Shown here: positions 2,104-33,478 of the stretch, one piece after another
Layout: the number at the start of each line of letters is the position of its first letter
Numbering within the stretch: the first letter of the stretch is position 1
IMG/VR virus record: IMGVR_UViG_3300042154_004306
Length of the DNA: 64,000 bases
Direction: 5' to 3' (one strand)
Source of the DNA: a virus
Taxonomy: Duplodnaviria; Heunggongvirae; Uroviricota; Caudoviricetes
Notes under the pieces: generated by a model
Databases searched by the model: none
Told to the model about the DNA's origin: nothing
Seen by the model: only the letters and a program-made list of their open reading frames with translations
Position numbers and translations under genes: made by a program

Positions 2104-2555
2104 TGGGACCAGTACTTACATTTGGACAAAGACAACAGGCGCTAAAGGGATTGCCTTTCTACGGAAAGAGCGATTTTAACTTTGTTGCGTCCAGAAGTAA
2201 TTTCTCAGGAGGTATCGCAATTAAGGTACTTCCACTATCTGATCTTTCTAGAGCTCAAACCGTTAATATTGATGATTTTGATAGAGAAATTAAGCACTTA
2301 AACCAAGCCTTCAAAACTGGTTCCAGAATAAGCGGAATCACGGTTAATTCTCCATTCACAGGTAAAAAGGGAGAAGGTGAATCGGTCATAGGTAAATTTG
2401 AAAGTTTTAAAATCGATAAGCCTAACCAGACAATCCGAGCGTTCATTAGAGATCCAAAATCAATGAAGCTAGTTGAAGTTTACCCTGAAACACTGACTCG
2501 TCTTACGGAGTCTACTTCCCATGTAGCGAAAACCTTCCTGGATTTCGTGATATAA
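2103..2555 (+). CDS. hypothetical protein
   Basis: Coupled ORF; ends LTES..KTFLDFVI. Confidence 0.65.
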   Translation: MGPVLTFGQRQQALKGLPFYGKSDFNFVASRSNFSGGIAIKVLPLSDLSRAQTVNIDDFDREIKHLNQAFKTGSRISGITVNSPFTGKKGEGESVIGKFESFKIDKPNQTIRAFIRDPKSMKLVEVYPETLTRLTESTSHVAKTFLDFVI

Positions 2556-2575
2556 TCTTAAAAGAACAAATACTT

Positions 2576-3613
2576 ATGGCAATAGAACAAGAGAAGGATC
2601 TTGGCGGAGAAGAAGAAATATCTTCATTTCTCGAGCAAGAGGACTCAAAGTACGGCAAAAATTCAAACGATACAGCTAAGTCGGTTGAAGCTGAGAAACT
2701 GCTACCTAAAACTAATTTAGGAACTGCCCGATCAGTTCAAATCGCAGAAGAGTCTTCGATTTCTGGTGCAAACGATGGATACTGGAAGAACGTGCCTCTT
2801 GAGAATTTACCATCAGGCGGATTATTTTACGCAGAAGGTTCAGAATTAACGATTAGAGCAGCAACCGTTTCCGAAATAAGACACTGGTCAACCATTGACG
2901 AGGATGATGTTCTTGACATAGACGATAAGTTGAATTTCATAATTGAAAAGTGTACTCGATTTAAAGTCAAAGGCGGTCAGTCCTGGTTAACTTGGAGAGA
3001 TATTTTAGAGATCGATAGGTTATACGTAATCTTTTTGATTCATGAAATAAGCTTTCCAGACGGTCAGAACGAACTTTTCGTTAAGTTACAGTGTACTGAA
3101 ACTTGTTCAGAAGAAGGTAAGTTCAACGACGAGGTCAAGGTTAAGAGCGGAATGCTTCAATTTTTCGAATTTCCATCTGAACTTGAGCCATGGTATTCGG
3201 CTGAGTATCGCTGCTTTGAAGTAGTTTCGCAAAAGTTAAATGAAACGTTCTATTTGTACATGCCGACAATCGGCGTAATCGAAAGACTACGTAAACGCAT
3301 AGCTGAGGCAAAGACTCTAAATCGATCAATCGATAAGTCTTTTATAAAGATTGCACCGTACATCATTCAAGATTGGACCAAGTTTGGTCAGCAAGAATAT
3401 GCAGCACTACAATCCGAAACTTTAGGTTGGCATATTAATAAGTTCACATTCATTACCAAATTCGTTGATCAGGTACAAGCCTCACGAGATAATTCAGTGA
3501 CGGCTCAATGCCCTAAGTGTGGAGCAAAATTGACGTCATCAATTTTTTCGTCAAACAGCTTCACTGTCAAAGATCTTTTCCTTATTTCAGGTAGACTTGA
3601 CCAACTTATTTGA
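2576..3613 (+). CDS. T4 gp26-like baseplate hub assembly protein / tail chaperone
   Basis: LPSGG.FY, IRAATVSE, DRLYVIFLI, C-terminal CPKCG: typical pattern of gp26-like proteins. Confidence 0.65.
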   Translation: MAIEQEKDLGGEEEISSFLEQEDSKYGKNSNDTAKSVEAEKLLPKTNLGTARSVQIAEESSISGANDGYWKNVPLENLPSGGLFYAEGSELTIRAATVSEIRHWSTIDEDDVLDIDDKLNFIIEKCTRFKVKGGQSWLTWRDILEIDRLYVIFLIHEISFPDGQNELFVKLQCTETCSEEGKFNDEVKVKSGMLQFFEFPSELEPWYSAEYRCFEVVSQKLNETFYLYMPTIGVIERLRKRIAEAKTLNRSIDKSFIKIAPYIIQDWTKFGQQEYAALQSETLGWHINKFTFITKFVDQVQASRDNSVTAQCPKCGAKLTSSIFSSNSFTVKDLFLISGRLDQLI

Positions 3614-3770
3614 GACCAATCGTCTCCTGGCAGTGAAGCTGCACCAATCGATAACCGAACTTTACGGATTACCTTTCTACGAGTACCTAAGCTATGTCAA
3701 ATTCTTAATAGATGAGTCTGGCACAAACACTCAAGAAGTATTCGAAATTCAAACTGGACTTGATGCATAA
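3597..3770 (+). CDS. gp51-like small baseplate/tail assembly protein (TTG start or frameshift extension)
   Basis: +1-frame ORF LTNLFETNRLLAVKLHQSITELYGLPFYEYLSYVKFL overlapping the end of the gp26-like gene; not in ORF track (57 aa). Confidence 0.5.
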   Translation: MTNLFETNRLLAVKLHQSITELYGLPFYEYLSYVKFLIDESGTNTQEVFEIQTGLDA

Positions 3771-3794
3771 TTTGCTCAGGTCCTTTGTTTTTTA

Positions 3795-3802
3795 ATAAAT
3801 AA
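3795..3802 (+). promoter_or_regulatory. T4-like late promoter motif ATAAATAA (representative copy)
   Basis: Same motif upstream of genes at 8220/8243/8269, 12433, 14839, 41555, 54880, 60831 (+) and 23734, 35119, 37873, 41536, 46009, 46912, 47862, 61949 (-); resembles T4 TATAAATA. Confidence 0.7.
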
Positions 3803-3820
3803 CCAAAAGAACTTAACCAA

Positions 3821-5248
3821 GTGAAATATAATCAGAACTACTTAACGTCAGCGACTCTGTTTACCGAGGCTGGAATAACTAGGCTAGATATTAGAGTTAC
3901 TGATATCGCTAACGGAGAAATAGTCGCATCTGCTGGCGCGAATGAAGGTAGTTTAAAAACAATACACCAAACTGCAATCGATGAAATAAGGGATAAGCTT
4001 GATGAATTAAAGATAGTCGGTGTAATTCTACCAAGCGTTAAACAGTTGAAGGAAGGCGAAATCAGGTTATTTCCTTCAAAGCCTCAGGCCGGCAGTATCA
4101 TATCATCCGATCTTAGTTTATTAACCCCGGCGTCTATTTTAGAAAATGAGATTAACAAACTATCAACCCCCAAGAATATTCCAACCGAAGAAACTGTTTT
4201 ATCTAGCGAAACGGCTAAATCAACAGTTAGCGAATCTTCAACTAGCTTAAAATCTTTACCGATTGAAAATTCAGTCGAGGTCCCTAAAACGACTGAGGCC
4301 AAATCTGCTGAGTCTGAAGTTAGATCTACACCAATTCCGACAGTTAAGCCTGAGCCGGTCGAATCTGTTAAGATTGTGACTGTACCGGTTGAAGTTGAAA
4401 GGGCTGCTCCATTGGCAGCAACCGTTGCAACTTCCGGTAACGTTACACAAGCAGCAGTTTCGCCAATCACGACAACTAACATTACCTCGAATACAGTTAA
4501 TAAAACCGGCGAATCGATTGCTACTGCTACCGAAAAGGAGATCACTAAGGCCTTATTGGAAAGTACTAACTCTGTTAGTAAGACAACTGACGTCTCACAA
4601 AAGTCAACCAATTCAATCATAAAGGATGGATCAACTCTTTTAAAAGAACTTAGCTCAACCAAAGAAACTTCTCAAAAGTCAACCATTGAAAAAGTGACTT
4701 CTCCAGAAGATTTAATTCTTTCAAGTTTTGGATCAGTTGACTTTATGCAAGGTCTTATTAAAGAGGGCGTAAAATTTTCTGGTTCTGATAATATATTAAA
4801 GGCAGCAAACGAAAAAAAGGAGTCTCTGGCTAGTGGAGTTGAATCAGGTAATAGCAAAATCTCTTCCGAGGTAGCTAGTTTAAAAACATCAAAACTAGCT
4901 GATTCCAATTCGGTAAAACAATTGCTAACTCCTGATAAAACTTTAGAAAGGAGCGTTCGTAAATTAACTAAGGATCTTCCTGAATCAATAAACAATCTAA
5001 ATTCGTCATTTAGCAACTTCTCTCCGCAAAGTTCAAGTACGGCAACCGTTACAAATGAAGGAGCTAAAATTGATCAGAGTAGCACAGTTAATTCAATGCA
5101 ACCAAATAACCGGCAAGTCAGTCAACCGGAGACAGCTTCACCGCAAGCTAATTCTCAAACCGGCATGAATCAGAGTGATTTTTACATGCAGGCAATATAC
5201 GCAGCATTGATGTCGGGTAAAATCAGAGTTAAACTAGAACAATTATAA
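3821..5248 (+). CDS. Ser/Thr-rich low-complexity late protein
   Basis: 475-aa ORF, GTG start, late motif upstream. Confidence 0.65.
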   Translation: MKYNQNYLTSATLFTEAGITRLDIRVTDIANGEIVASAGANEGSLKTIHQTAIDEIRDKLDELKIVGVILPSVKQLKEGEIRLFPSKPQAGSIISSDLSLLTPASILENEINKLSTPKNIPTEETVLSSETAKSTVSESSTSLKSLPIENSVEVPKTTEAKSAESEVRSTPIPTVKPEPVESVKIVTVPVEVERAAPLAATVATSGNVTQAAVSPITTTNITSNTVNKTGESIATATEKEITKALLESTNSVSKTTDVSQKSTNSIIKDGSTLLKELSSTKETSQKSTIEKVTSPEDLILSSFGSVDFMQGLIKEGVKFSGSDNILKAANEKKESLASGVESGNSKISSEVASLKTSKLADSNSVKQLLTPDKTLERSVRKLTKDLPESINNLNSSFSNFSPQSSSTATVTNEGAKIDQSSTVNSMQPNNRQVSQPETASPQANSQTGMNQSDFYMQAIYAALMSGKIRVKLEQL

Positions 5249-16701: not shown

Positions 16702-16890
16702 ATGTTAATCGTAAATACAAAGGACAATGGATCATTAGACAGAGCCCTAAAGGTACTAAAAAGAAAATTTGAACAGACTGGAACAGTTATAGAACTTCGC
16801 TCACGTAAGGAGTTCACAAAACCTAGCGTCAAACGCAGAGAAGAGATGATTGATGCAAAGTATCGCCAAACCTTTATCAAGAATGATTAA
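16702..16890 (+). CDS. rpsU: 30S ribosomal protein bS21
   Basis: SLDRALK.LKRK...ELRSRKEFTKPSVKRR. Confidence 0.9.
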   Translation: MLIVNTKDNGSLDRALKVLKRKFEQTGTVIELRSRKEFTKPSVKRREEMIDAKYRQTFIKND

Positions 16891-29846: not shown

Positions 29847-30422
29847 ATGAATAAAGAACAACAAGAATTATTGGGTGAGGCTTATAAGAATTATTATAAC
29901 TATATGAGGGATGATAGACAATGGGAATTAGATAAAGAAGAATTCATCAACAAATGTAAAACTGAACCTAAGTTCTCTGAAAAGTGGGGATTAAAGATTG
30001 AAGAACGAGAGTTGAGTTTGGAAGATAGAAAAATACATATGTCCAAATACTCCAATGATAGAATTTACCCAGATTGGGATGAAAAATTCTTAAGCGAAAA
30101 AAGCATCCCAACCAAACTAATCACAATAACATACAAAAAAACTACAATAGAAGTTATGAATAAAGTAAATGAAGCCGGATATAATGAAGCACCCAAATTT
30201 GGTCCTTCACAAAACAATCCACCGTATATCTCAGACGATTTCCAAATTGGTCCTAATGGTGCCTATGAACACAATGAAATAGTTCATATACAACAACAGT
30301 TAATCGATTTGTTATACTCACAGGTAATAGACTTATCAATGATGTCTAAAATTGAATTAGGTGATGATGTCATTGCTGAGGTTAAACGATTAAAATCTAT
30401 TATAGATGAAAAGACTACTTAG
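29847..30422 (+). CDS. mosaic/fused hypothetical protein
   Basis: Shares EEFINK.K...F..KWG and RELSLE with ThyA, and PYISDDFQIGPNGAYEH with 327..1028. Confidence 0.6.
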   Translation: MNKEQQELLGEAYKNYYNYMRDDRQWELDKEEFINKCKTEPKFSEKWGLKIEERELSLEDRKIHMSKYSNDRIYPDWDEKFLSEKSIPTKLITITYKKTTIEVMNKVNEAGYNEAPKFGPSQNNPPYISDDFQIGPNGAYEHNEIVHIQQQLIDLLYSQVIDLSMMSKIELGDDVIAEVKRLKSIIDEKTT

Positions 30423-30573
30423 AATTATTATTGGACTTCCGCTATGTCCAGTTCCGATGTTTTTAGGAACTTGGATATGGCTATTTTCAAACACTAAAGA
30501 TTCATGGATAGAGAGTATTGGGTATCTTACTTGGAATTTAGCATCGGGAAATTGGGATAAATTACCAGAATAA
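30406..30573 (+). CDS. small membrane protein
   Basis: 55-aa ORF MKRLLRIIIGLPLCPVPMFLGTWIWLF..., not in track. Confidence 0.45.
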   Translation: MKRLLRIIIGLPLCPVPMFLGTWIWLFSNTKDSWIESIGYLTWNLASGNWDKLPE

Positions 30574-30597
30574 AAACAATTAAAATAAAAAATAAAC

Positions 30598-30828
30598 ATG
30601 GCAGATTTTTCAAAACAATGGTGTGAAATTAATGACCCAGGTATGTCTGGTGACTTTGACATTTTAGAAGAGGCAAATAATATTAAACCTAATCATTATA
30701 TTCCTATGATATGTGAAGGATATGGTTTTGTAGCAATAGGCAAAGATGAGCATGATGATATTATATTAGCATTTAAAGATAATGAAGGTAATATTAAATG
30801 GGAAACTTATAACAGCGTTATTAAATAA
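30598..30828 (+). CDS. hypothetical protein
   Basis: MADFSKQWC...ICEGYG. Confidence 0.6.
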   Translation: MADFSKQWCEINDPGMSGDFDILEEANNIKPNHYIPMICEGYGFVAIGKDEHDDIILAFKDNEGNIKWETYNSVIK

Positions 30829-30845
30829 AACAAAAATAATTACAA

Positions 30846-31160
30846 ATGAATAATCTAGATAAGCAATATACAGACCTACTTCAAGACATACTTGATAATG
30901 GATTTAAGAAACAAGACAGAACAGGTACAGGAACAATCTCAGTATTTGGTAGACAAATACGTCATAAAATGAGCGACGGCTTTCCATTACTCACAACTAA
31001 AAAGATGGCTTGGAAATCAGTGGTAACTGAACTGTTATGGTTTTTAAAAGGCCGAAGTGACTTAAAGTACTTACTTGACAATGATTGCAACATCTGGACT
31101 GGGGACGGCTATCAAGCATATCTTAAAGAATGTGAAAAATATAAGGAAGAAGATAAGTAA
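30846..31160 (+). CDS. thyA: thymidylate synthase, N-terminal fragment
   Basis: [27 protein letters not shown]. Confidence 0.9.
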
Positions 31161-31200
31161 TTTTTATTAGCATCGCCAAAGATATATAAAATAAAAATCT

Positions 31201-31899
31201 ATGGAAAAATACATTCTTTATCTTAAAACTTCCCCTCTTGGTCTTAAATACCTAGGAAAAACTACCAAGGATCCTTACAAATACATAGGTAGCGGAAAAA
31301 TATGGCTAAGGCACCTAAAAAAACACGAGATTTCAACAGATGAGATAAAAACAGAAATTTTGTTTGAAACTGACAATCTGGAAGAATTTAAAATAAAGTC
31401 TAAAGAAATTTCAATAAAATTAAACATTGTTGAATCCGAAGAATTTGCCAATCTTAAAGTAGAGGAAGGAGATGGTGGGGATACTTCAAAGTATATAAAT
31501 TATGATAACCCAGTGTTTCATAAAAAAGGAAGAGCCGATCATTTAAACGGGGTTGGTTTAACTGAGGAGGAAAGAAAGAAAATCTTTATGGAAAGATCTA
31601 AACTTATAGATTATTCAAATCCAGAAAGAATAAGAAAAATAAAAGATAATACAGATTGGAAGAAATTAATTGAAAATAGACATACAGATTATTCTAAATT
31701 TTTAAATATAGTACACGAAAAAAATAAAAAACCTGTTTTACAGCTTGATTTGGAAGGTAACATTATTATGGAACACAAATCAGCGGCAGACGCAGTTAGA
31801 TACCTTAACGCTAAAAAATATAGCTCTAGTACAATAACTAATTGTTGTAAAGGAAAGGGTGAAACTGCGTTAGGATACAAATGGAAATATAAAAAATAA
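31201..31899 (+). CDS. GIY-YIG (Seg-like) homing endonuclease with NUMOD1-type DNA-binding domain
   Basis: LY..T...KYLGKT..Y.GSG; KPVLQLDL.G...S..DA...ITNCCKG...GYKWKY. Confidence 0.8.
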   Translation: MEKYILYLKTSPLGLKYLGKTTKDPYKYIGSGKIWLRHLKKHEISTDEIKTEILFETDNLEEFKIKSKEISIKLNIVESEEFANLKVEEGDGGDTSKYINYDNPVFHKKGRADHLNGVGLTEEERKKIFMERSKLIDYSNPERIRKIKDNTDWKKLIENRHTDYSKFLNIVHEKNKKPVLQLDLEGNIIMEHKSAADAVRYLNAKKYSSSTITNCCKGKGETALGYKWKYKK

Positions 31900-31903
31900 A
31901 CTT

Positions 31904-32857
31904 ATGAATAAAGAACATTTACACCCAGAAGGAAGACCCTACACACAAGAAGAATTCATCAACAAAATCAAAACAGATGATGAGTTTGCTAAGAAATGGG
32001 GTGATTTAGGTCCGATTTACGGTAAGCAATGGAGAAATTGGGATATTAAACCTAATATAGAAACTAAATCTTATATTCATAAAGGAGAGACGCACTTTAC
32101 ATTTGATATTAATGAAAGACAGCCAATAGACCAAATCGCAAACTCAATCAATCTACTTAAAATAGACCCAGACTCAAGACGTAATAAAGTTAGTGCTTGG
32201 AATGTCGGAGAATTGGATGAAATGGTTCTTCCACCTTGCCATACAGATTTTCAGTTTTTTACAAGAGAGTTGAGTTTGAAAGAAAGATTGCAAGTCTGGG
32301 ATAGTAAGTTTGGATTTGCCAATGATGAACAAAAGAATCAATTTAACACTGATGTTCATTTAGATACTCACGGAATACCTAAAAGAGCAATCTCATTAAT
32401 GTGGAATCAAAGATCAGTAGACACAGGATTAGGCTTACCATTTAACATTGCTTCTTATGGATTGTTATTAGAGATAATCGCTAAAGAAGTTAACATGGTT
32501 CCTGATGAGTTGATTGGTAATTTGGGTGATACACATTTATACTCAAACCATATTGAACAAGCAAAGGAGCAGATTGGTAGAGAGTTGAGTTTGGAAGAAA
32601 GGTTATCTTTAGTTAAAAATAATGTAATGAGTTTTGATGAATTATCCAAAGCAAATTATGATGAATTTTTTAAAAAGAATAATATACCGAACAGAACTAG
32701 AGAACCATACCCATTACCAACATTAAAAATTGTGGGTTACCCTGAAGAATATAAGCATCCCAATGACGAACGATTATTTGAAGAGTTTGACATATCTGAC
32801 TTTCAACTTGAAAATTATCAATCACACCCAACTATTAAAATGCCTTTATCAAACTAA
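31904..32857 (+). CDS. thyA: thymidylate synthase, C-terminal fragment
   Basis: GDLGPIYGKQWR, DSRR, LPPCH, QRSVD..LGLPFNIASY, GDTHLYSNH. Confidence 0.92.
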   Translation: MNKEHLHPEGRPYTQEEFINKIKTDDEFAKKWGDLGPIYGKQWRNWDIKPNIETKSYIHKGETHFTFDINERQPIDQIANSINLLKIDPDSRRNKVSAWNVGELDEMVLPPCHTDFQFFTRELSLKERLQVWDSKFGFANDEQKNQFNTDVHLDTHGIPKRAISLMWNQRSVDTGLGLPFNIASYGLLLEIIAKEVNMVPDELIGNLGDTHLYSNHIEQAKEQIGRELSLEERLSLVKNNVMSFDELSKANYDEFFKKNNIPNRTREPYPLPTLKIVGYPEEYKHPNDERLFEEFDISDFQLENYQSHPTIKMPLSN

Positions 32858-32870
32858 AAAAATATAAATT

Positions 32871-33107
32871 ATGGAAAACTACAAATCGGATTACTACAAT
32901 CCAGAAACATTTGAAAAATCAGAAGTTGAAACTAAAATACCTGCTAGTTTAGTTAATAAGGTTAAGCAAACACTAGATAAATTGGAAGGCTACATGATAA
33001 CACCAACAATGGTTAATCCCAAATATGATTCAGTAACATTCGGGATCATGGATATGACTAATAGAACATTAAAATATAGAGTTTCAATCACACCAAATTA
33101 CCTTTAA
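32871..33107 (+). CDS. hypothetical protein
   Basis: ORF in operon. Confidence 0.55.
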   Translation: MENYKSDYYNPETFEKSEVETKIPASLVNKVKQTLDKLEGYMITPTMVNPKYDSVTFGIMDMTNRTLKYRVSITPNYL

Positions 33108-33118
33108 GTAATTAATAT

Positions 33119-33478
33119 ATGATAGAAATAAGATTTAGAGATATCGATCCAGATACTGGAGGAATTTCTCAAGACATGAAAATCGCAACTTGCGAAATCC
33201 TAATTTACGCTGAATGGATCAAGCAAGCTCTTGAAACTGGAGACGCTGATCAACCTAATCGCGAGTATTATCTGGTCGATCGTGAAGATCCTAACCGTGA
33301 GCTCACGTATGAGGAAAGAATTGCATGGTTCGTTGCGAATCACTATGAAACTGGCATGGAGTACTCAAATCTATTAGAGTCGATGAAGACTACTAATCTT
33401 GATAATTTTGAATACATTAACGGTGAAATTGTTAAGATTCCAAAAACGGTTGGTGAACTTGGCCTAGCACAAGATTAA
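33119..33478 (+). CDS. hypothetical protein
   Basis: ORF in operon; contains RELTYEER. Confidence 0.55.
   Translation: MIEIRFRDIDPDTGGISQDMKIATCEILIYAEWIKQALETGDADQPNREYYLVDREDPNRELTYEERIAWFVANHYETGMEYSNLLESMKTTNLDNFEYINGEIVKIPKTVGELGLAQD

Follow-up and report, generated by a model that had tools for sequence, protein, structure and literature searches.

Architecture of the interrupted thyA locus

The window analysed here, a stretch of 64,000 nucleotides (nt) of Caudoviricetes DNA of an uncultured lake phage from the IMG/VR record IMGVR_UViG_3300042154_004306, carries a thymidylate synthase gene, thyA, that lies in pieces. Three tightly packed open reading frames (ORFs) on the + strand, each in a different frame according to coordinate arithmetic, encode the N-terminal part of the enzyme (ThyA-N), a free-standing endonuclease of the homing type and the enzyme's C-terminal part (ThyA-C) (Table 1). 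With the 266-position profile PF00303 (cut-off 24.3 bits), ThyA-N scores 108.5 bits and ThyA-C 197.7 bits, the latter in two stretches that include the C-terminal end and the best of which covers positions 76-245; PHROGs concurs with Pfam on both halves. Judged by these profiles, the two proteins together cover one thymidylate synthase. No other start codon comes between the ATG of thyA-C and the in-frame stop before it, and the PPCH, QRSVD and NIASY motifs are all present in the ThyA-C translation.

Table 1. Parts of the thyA locus, tracts of the locus compared with the related contig L082, and other genes of the window (window coordinates; aa, amino acids)
Feature	Position	Strand	Description
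thyA-N	30846..31160	+	104 aa, TAA stop; PF00303 E 4.3e-31, profile positions 1-84
N-side half-linker (tail)	31110..31157	+	helical in the fused-allele model; kept in all split, not in uninterrupted, alleles
Spacer, 40 nt	31161..31200	+	precedes the endonuclease start
Endonuclease gene, free-standing, homing type	31201..31899	+	232 aa; predicted N-terminal I-TevI-like (GIY-YIG) fold and C-terminal I-HmuI/NUMOD-type DNA-binding domain
Gap, 4 nt (ACTT)	31900..31903	+	between endonuclease stop and thyA-C ATG; coupling-distance junction; A-rich, unstructured
thyA-C	31904..32857	+	317 aa, own ATG; PF00303 E 2.7e-58
C-side half-linker (head), MNKEHLHPEGRPY	31904..31942	+	modelled as coil in the fused allele; followed by the conserved helix QEEFINKIKT
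Putative mobile cassette/co-conversion tract	31040..32039	+	endonuclease gene, 121 nt of thyA-N and 136 nt of thyA-C; 6 differences/1000 nt to L082 (99.4%)
thyA-N body	30840-31039		identity to L082 136/200 (68%)
thyA-C, variable loops	32040-32389		identity to L082 202/350 (58%, with gaps)
thyA-C, 3' part	32390-32839		identity to L082 428/450 (95%)
Ribosomal protein S21 homologue	16702-16887	+	phage-encoded; PF01165 E 4.2e-15
191-aa ORF	29847-30422	+	two genes upstream of thyA
Serine recombinase	61300-62187	-	Resolvase N-terminal domain and HTH_17; minority strand, near the window end

Residues 6-85 of ThyA-N align to residues 2-81 of the thymidylate synthase (TS) of Escherichia coli, and residues 1-97 to residues 5-101 of 4dq1, the long-form enzyme of S. 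aureus, to which ThyA-C aligns from its residue 15 onwards (residue 128 of 4dq1). The break thus falls between 4dq1 residues ~101 and ~128, i. e. inside the small-domain insert of the long-form enzymes. At this site, the linker is hypervariable in length and sequence among 47 distinct uninterrupted alleles. Two metagenome contigs, L106 and L123 (L123:727-1761, minus strand), carry an uninterrupted thyA in which the N-terminal tail and the C-terminal head of the split alleles are fused in frame, with the linker sequences …KLKKD-NKNDLHESGRP… and …KLKKD-LHESGRP…. In the best of five AlphaFold2 (AF2) models of the natural fused allele L123 (predicted local distance difference test (pLDDT) score 84.9, predicted template modelling score 0.86), the break falls into a coil of 13 residues (99-111) that connects helix 85-98 with helix 112-121 (QEEFINKIKT). 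A first-pass annotation of the window had described ThyA-N of 104 aa with a TAA stop, 40 nt, an ORF, 4 nt, and ThyA-C with its own ATG and the three motifs, and had placed the break in the variable small-domain insertion: the layout is borne out by the ORF coordinates and PF00303, and the position of the break by the alignments to 4dq1 and E. coli TS as well as by the fused-allele model.

Compared to the fused alleles, the split alleles have gained about four codons and a stop on the left, and on the right an ATG and two codons that lie inside the 3' end of the endonuclease ORF. Since both half-linkers occur fused in frame in L106 and L123, they can be regarded as the two halves of one native linker variant, and the invading element seems to have contributed only a stop and a start. 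L106 and L123 themselves are candidates for either empty (ancestral) homing sites or revertants that arose by precise deletion. Among the split alleles, the half-linkers vary synonymously while their protein sequence is conserved. The motif search with the N-terminal tail, which was used to collect many of these alleles, favours conserved tails by its very design; L079 and L010, which were found via ThyA-C and have less similar tails, show the real range of tail variation.

The endonuclease and the spread of its cassette

For the window endonuclease, Pfam PF01541 (GIY-YIG) gave no match at E <= 1, and the same was true for its 66% relative. PHROGs returned no family for the protein, and a sequence search of the PDB returned no match at E <= 10. 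NUMOD1 scores 18 bits (E 0.0034) on the window endonuclease, under the cut-off of 22.8 bits, and 26 bits, above this cut-off, on the homologue from L083. When an AF2 model of the window protein (pLDDT 82.3) was compared with solved structures, the catalytic domain of I-TevI was the best structural match for residues 2-88, which take up the alpha/beta fold of GIY-YIG enzymes in the model; a modular NUMOD/helix-turn-helix DNA-binding domain follows at the C-terminus. In a family-internal comparison of 35 sequences, Y7, Y17, G19, R37, H38, N84 and E88 are invariant and E56 nearly so. At least 551 metagenomic proteins, about 230-240 aa in length, belong to the family; NUMOD1 or I-HmuI-NUMOD-like domains (PF07453, PF22083) are found in many of them, and the ratio of nonsynonymous to synonymous substitutions (dN/dS) within the family is 0.08-0.2. 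A tblastn search of 50,697 phage records resulted in matches only to the DNA-binding module (residues ~136-231), and none of the 33 matching records covered 80% of the query. We suggest that the ORF encodes a homing endonuclease of the NUMOD type with a GIY-YIG fold that belongs to an uncharacterised family and is not filed in the Pfam GIY-YIG family. The initial GIY-YIG/NUMOD label is thus supported by the fold comparison, on which its GIY-YIG part is based, but not by the Pfam GIY-YIG model. The 40-nt spacer can form a weak hairpin that is able to take in the AUG of the endonuclease (z -0.73 in the window), and in the L083-type cassette the spacer at this place shows significant folding (z -3.0; 2 of 200 shuffles fold as well). 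L086 (2693-3407) has a window-type endonuclease gene that has fallen apart into two ORFs, of 160 and 97 aa, and seems to be decaying, next to an intact ThyA-N.

The nearest isolate, Flavobacterium phage vB_FspM_immuto_2-6A (81.6% identity over 12% of the query), has an uninterrupted thyA, a single ORF of 423 aa. A search of IMG/VR with ThyA-C yielded 594 confirmed loci, and the best 80 of them comprise 71 uninterrupted (47 distinct sequences), eight interrupted and one incomplete locus. The tail-motif search was applied to IMG/VR and to metagenome contigs, two collections that partly overlap and contain several near-identical loci, so that the counts are not independent: at all 20 IMG/VR loci a stop follows a few codons after the motif, and 17 of these loci show an endonuclease ORF (that of L086 broken in two), while three end at the contig edge. 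The 29 matches in metagenome contigs consist of 23 loci with an endonuclease ORF (14 of the window type, eight of a 323-335-aa type and one I-TevI-like), two uninterrupted fused alleles, two loci cut by the contig end and two unrelated chance matches. In other phages, the insert at the window's split site is a member of the window family, a protein of 323-335 aa with Pfam DUF7487 (L074, L079), a classical GIY-YIG/NUMOD protein (L010) or an I-TevI-like protein (L115), the latter as judged from the resemblance of its first residues to the endonuclease of L006. The split at one and the same site thus recurs with three or four unrelated endonuclease types.

Two further loci are broken differently. 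L006 is a contig of 126.8 kb in which the 3' end of thyA and the downstream gene are near-identical to those of the window. Its thyA (2343-4627) is unbroken at the window's site, but an I-TevI-like GIY-YIG/NUMOD3 endonuclease interrupts it at a second position, immediately ahead of MVLPPCH. There, the newly formed N-tail (…DDELYQDYLKDIGKS) and C-head (MNQLSKEEFLEKLKTDKDFNFRYG…) are similar to the pair of helices on either side of the window's break (AYQAYLKE… and EEFINKIKTDDEFAKKWG). In L104 (2325-4339), thyA is broken twice: An N piece and a window-type endonuclease are followed by a 65-aa middle piece ending …DDELYEDYLKKVK and by a second, HNH-looking endonuclease ORF.

The comparison with L082, a contig of a related phage with an overall identity to the window of about 90%, is informative on the mobility of the element. 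A tract of about 1 kb around the endonuclease gene is near-identical in the two phages and sits in diverged thyA flanks (Table 1), as expected for the footprint of homing and co-conversion. By sequence comparison, the endonuclease thus moved horizontally and recently, and some 130 nt of thyA from either side moved with it. A contig from a third run (X5) bears an L082-type cassette with the same two substitutions, at 31107 and 31686, and in pairwise comparisons of split alleles the synonymous divergence (dS) of the endonuclease is often below that of thyA. Over window positions 31936-32056, which encode EEFINKIKTDDEFAKKWG, the lake metagenome contig depth spikes to 1200-2700 as compared to about 20 over the endonuclease. 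Moreover, the synonymous codon identity of 47 uninterrupted alleles is highest in the flanks of the variable loops (0.74-0.91, compared to about 0.45-0.55 in the N-terminal core). Taken together, depth and synonymous identity in the loop flanks point to a constraint at the DNA level, such as recombination anchors or target sites of endonucleases.

Probable functionality of the divided enzyme

It is likely that ThyA-N and ThyA-C form a working two-chain enzyme. In E. coli TS, the catalytic cysteine is part of the PPCH motif, arginines bind the phosphate, an asparagine selects deoxyuridine monophosphate (dUMP), and a histidine and a tyrosine belong to the DxHxY motif. In the window, the equivalent positions are divided between the two chains: R25, E62 and W84 of ThyA-N correspond to R21, E58 and W80 of the E. 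coli enzyme, and R92/R93, C112 (PPCH), R170, D173, N181, H211 and Y213 of ThyA-C to R126/R127, C146, R166, D169, N177, H207 and Y209. All these residues are invariant in 39 sequences. Rough pairwise dN/dS ratios among 12 split alleles are 0.04-0.24 for the N part and 0.17-0.46 for the C part, and in the 36 and 40 codons that flank the endonuclease nonsynonymous differences (pN) are far rarer than synonymous ones (pS); purifying selection seems to act on both halves. In 11 of the 12 distinct split alleles both halves are open and of full length, and in the twelfth the doubt concerns a contig end only. A complete relative of 308,574 bp with terminal repeats contains the split thyA as its sole copy, without ThyX or a second ThyA. 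Similarly, no second ThyA or ThyX was found among the 98 window ORFs scanned besides the ORFs of the locus (one overlapping minus-strand ORF was left out) or in five related contigs. Two of these five contigs (G001, L134 125-919; G002, at a similar place) have an ORF of 264 aa, without counterpart in the window, that shows remote TS-like motifs (…VPCT…, …IRSCDY…) and scores 18.7 bits with PF00303, under the cut-off; it may encode a pyrimidine hydroxymethylase-like paralogue.

With respect to expression, no terminator-like site was found on the + strand within 30300-33300, and a scan for sigma-70 promoters was uninformative (16 sites compared to 15.6 expected). The region around the start of ThyA-C (31860-31940) is A-rich and unstructured (minimum free energy -2.5 kcal/mol, z +1.25). 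As to the reaction catalysed, PMC3184105 shows that phage "TS" annotations can be hydroxymethylases, and sequence alone cannot tell the conversion of dUMP to thymidylate (dTMP) from dUMP hydroxymethylation.

Before such an enzyme is considered further, it has to be asked whether the gene is really in pieces and whether the pieces are rejoined. That an assembly chimera or a sequencing artefact joined an endonuclease gene into thyA is so improbable as to be negligible. The window is derived from a metagenome, and conserved thyA segments draw reads and contigs from many phages, as seen in the depth spikes. However, the locus is not an assembly artefact, since contigs with zero differences run from N through the endonuclease into C, across both junctions, in two lake-water samplings (runs) that carry different study codes (X1, 30917-31969; X2, 30987-31969; one of the runs is possibly the source of the window); moreover, the same architecture is found at 17 IMG/VR and 23 metagenome loci from many samples. 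It is very unlikely, too, that the halves are rejoined into one chain by a self-splicing RNA that escaped recognition, by some intein-like element or by translational bypass. This idea draws on the thymidylate synthase genes of other phages that carry group I introns with GIY-YIG endonucleases, e. g. T4 td (PMC8351571), and on the fact that introns with large ORF insertions can escape the Rfam models. Yet Rfam gave no match for a group I intron at E <= 10 in the window region 30500-33200, with no group I model overlapping the ORFs, and none (RF00028-type) at E <= 1 in six related interrupted loci. The non-coding sequence at the split amounts to only 40 + 4 nt in the window; in 12 distinct split loci the spacer between N and the endonuclease measures 9-47 nt, and the endonuclease and ThyA-C are either 4-5 nt apart or overlap by 8-14 nt. 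The unrelated endonuclease genes of three or four types at this site have no flanking non-coding sequence in common, and they leave no possibility of a common RNA core. A group I intron was rejected on these grounds. An intein or split intein was rejected as well: There are three frames with stops, and the halves extend past the ThyA homology by only 12 and 13 aa, which is too short for intein halves; in the fused alleles L106 and L123, these extensions merge into an ordinary linker of 13-16 residues. Both statements of the first-pass annotation on this point, that there is no room for group I intron core helices and that intein motifs are lacking, are therefore supported. Finally, the gap of about 740 nt is far above the 50-nt bypass of T4 (bioRxiv 10.1101/2022.08.31.505936).

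A more serious objection, although still an unlikely one in our opinion, is that the insertion inactivated thyA, that the halves are intact only because the event is recent or because gene conversion refreshes them, and that the phage uses the enzyme of its host. Several observations weigh against a functional two-chain enzyme in this way. The cassette moved recently (6 differences/kb compared to L082), and the intact halves in the window could merely reflect a young insertion. Since the cassette is more mobile than the gene bodies are quick to diverge, low dN/dS values between split alleles are no proof of selection after the split, and with dS saturated for the majority of pairs the ratios are rough. 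A minority of the alleles is split (8 of the 79 loci that could be scored, within the best 80 of 594), as would fit a cost, and the host probably has a thymidylate synthase of its own, in which case the phage gene may be dispensable. In L010 (3-320), an in-frame stop occurs around codon 10 of ThyA-N, at a distance of 12-14 nt from the start of the contig; it reflects either a contig-end error or a real pseudogene. The remaining last part of thyA was not found in the L104 locus, and only the best AF2 model of L123 is confident, the four others having pLDDT values of 52-65. On the other hand, decay is hard to reconcile with the full-length open halves of nearly all distinct split alleles and the invariant catalytic residues. 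The endonuclease family has diverged to saturated dS, yet it still sits at the same site with conserved half-linkers, and these change synonymously whereas the same region is hypervariable in uninterrupted alleles. Last but not least, the complete 308-kb relative retains the split gene only.

If the two-chain enzyme that we favour is real, the locus would work as follows. The upstream half takes its stop codon, and the downstream half its ATG, from the endonuclease element, and three proteins would be made from one strand without RNA or protein splicing. The three ORFs would be co-transcribed, and ThyA-C may be translated via coupling or by independent initiation in the A-rich open region. The N and C chains would associate non-covalently into one protomer, and two such pairs would form the usual dimer, (N/C)2, with a composite active site made up of R25/E62/W84 of the N chain, C112/R170/D173/N181/H211/Y213 of the C chain and R92/R93 of the partner protomer. 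The conserved half-linkers, i. e. the helix that ends the N chain and the coil that leads into the EEFINKIKT helix of the C chain, may aid docking. During co-infection, the endonuclease would cut uninterrupted thyA alleles, and repair would copy the endonuclease gene in and thereby overwrite the hypervariable linker of the recipient.

It is tempting to speculate, although we do so tentatively, that thyA has, at its split point, a landing pad that is long-lived: One native linker variant (…(NKN)DLHESGRP…) may have been cut once by the insertion of an endonuclease, and its halves may have become a portable docking pair that moves along with the endonuclease. A homing cassette would then replace the hypervariable linker of each new allele with pre-adapted ends, and the cut enzyme would survive. 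Such ends would explain why three or four unrelated endonuclease families could replace one another at the site, and also why the same helix pair is copied at the second break in L006 (tail …DDELYQDYLK…, head …EEFLEKLKTDKDF…). If true, this would be a general and evolvable route for selfish endonucleases into essential genes that requires neither an intron nor an intein.

As for the remainder of the window, the 98 ORFs scanned indicate a large phage, with genes for DNA ligase, guanylate kinase, UvdE, Fpg, the ribosomal protein S21 homologue and a sigma factor; a serine recombinase is encoded on the minority strand (Table 1). The 191-aa ORF upstream of thyA contains AYKNY…, EEFINKCKTEPKFSEKWG, RELSLEDR and …IPTKLIT… in the same order as ThyA, and EEFINKCKTEPKFSEKWG is 63% identical to residues 15-33 of ThyA-C (pairwise E 1e-5). 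The protein has no catalytic core at all and resembles a core-less "mini-ThyA" made of the frames of the variable loops. A similar ORF is present upstream of thyA in L115.

Comparison with known systems

For their persistence in important genes, homing endonucleases are considered to depend on an intron, an intein or an intergenic site. To our knowledge, the single well-studied exception is nrdA of phage Aeh1, which is split by mobE. The thyA locus and its wild relatives would be a second and much more widespread case, in a different enzyme with a divided active site. Natural controls exist in the form of uninterrupted alleles, fused alleles with the same linker, second-site splits and several endonuclease families per site, and the system makes it possible to ask how proteins tolerate cutting, where "reassembly tails" come from and how endonucleases succeed one another at one site. 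In addition, gene callers and pangenome tools will mis-annotate split thyA genes as fragments or pseudogenes. In the literature searched, which included passages of PMC3184105, PMC8351571, PMC5135824 and PMC3322345 (with subscription-only papers outside its scope), no report of a thyA gene interrupted by a free-standing endonuclease came up.

The group I intron of T4 td carries I-TevI, and td is restored by RNA splicing. The two systems share the target gene, the catalytic fold of the endonuclease and the co-conversion signature, but the thyA of the window lacks an intron, and its insertion site, the linker in the small domain, is a different one. With the long-form TS enzymes of the L. casei/S. 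aureus/E. faecalis type (PDB 1lca, 4dq1, 3uwl), the phage enzyme shares the small-domain insert. These enzymes are single chains, whereas the phage clade has further variable loops and the chain encoded in the window is broken inside the insert.

The "fractured genes" of marine metagenomes, in which split-intein halves flank an endonuclease gene and ligate the protein (Dassa et al. 2009, PMC2677866), are similar in that a free-standing endonuclease, GIY-YIG or other, lies between the halves of a gene of DNA metabolism, that a spacer precedes the endonuclease (27-51 nt in their loci) and that a hairpin is found at the endonuclease start. According to the gene-breaking model proposed there, the invader brings an upstream stop and a downstream Met codon, and the comparison of the fused allele L106 with the split allele L083 matches this exactly. 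Unlike the fractured genes, thyA has extensions of 12 and 13 aa only and no intein, and thymidylate synthase is not one of the eight enzyme types described there.

By analogy, the closest known system is nrdA-a/mobE/nrdA-b of Aeromonas phage Aeh1, a ribonucleotide reductase encoded by "genes-in-pieces", where NrdA-a and NrdA-b set the precedent for a working enzyme from an endonuclease-split gene (Crona et al. 2011, PMC3045599). The window locus has the features of such genes: An endonuclease ORF lies between two halves on the same strand that have their own stop and start, relatives are uninterrupted, and there is no intron or intein. As in Aeh1, the break is bordered by short terminal tails, the endonuclease adjoins or overlaps the downstream half, and the active-site residues are divided between the chains (PMC3045599). 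However, thyA encodes a thymidylate synthase rather than a ribonucleotide reductase, and the endonuclease has a GIY-YIG fold with NUMOD rather than being an HNH enzyme like MobE. For Aeh1, the function of the split enzyme and a docking role of the NrdA tails have been demonstrated; for thyA, function is predicted from the sequence. Whereas the Aeh1 split is known from one phage, the thyA split is widespread in dozens of wild contigs and involves three or four unrelated endonucleases at one site; and whereas the tails of Aeh1 are thought to have arisen during the insertion, those of thyA would, according to the two fused alleles, be halves of a native linker. Beyond what is known from Aeh1, the thyA system thus adds its wide occurrence, a succession of different endonucleases at a single site and half-linkers of native origin that move along with the cassette.

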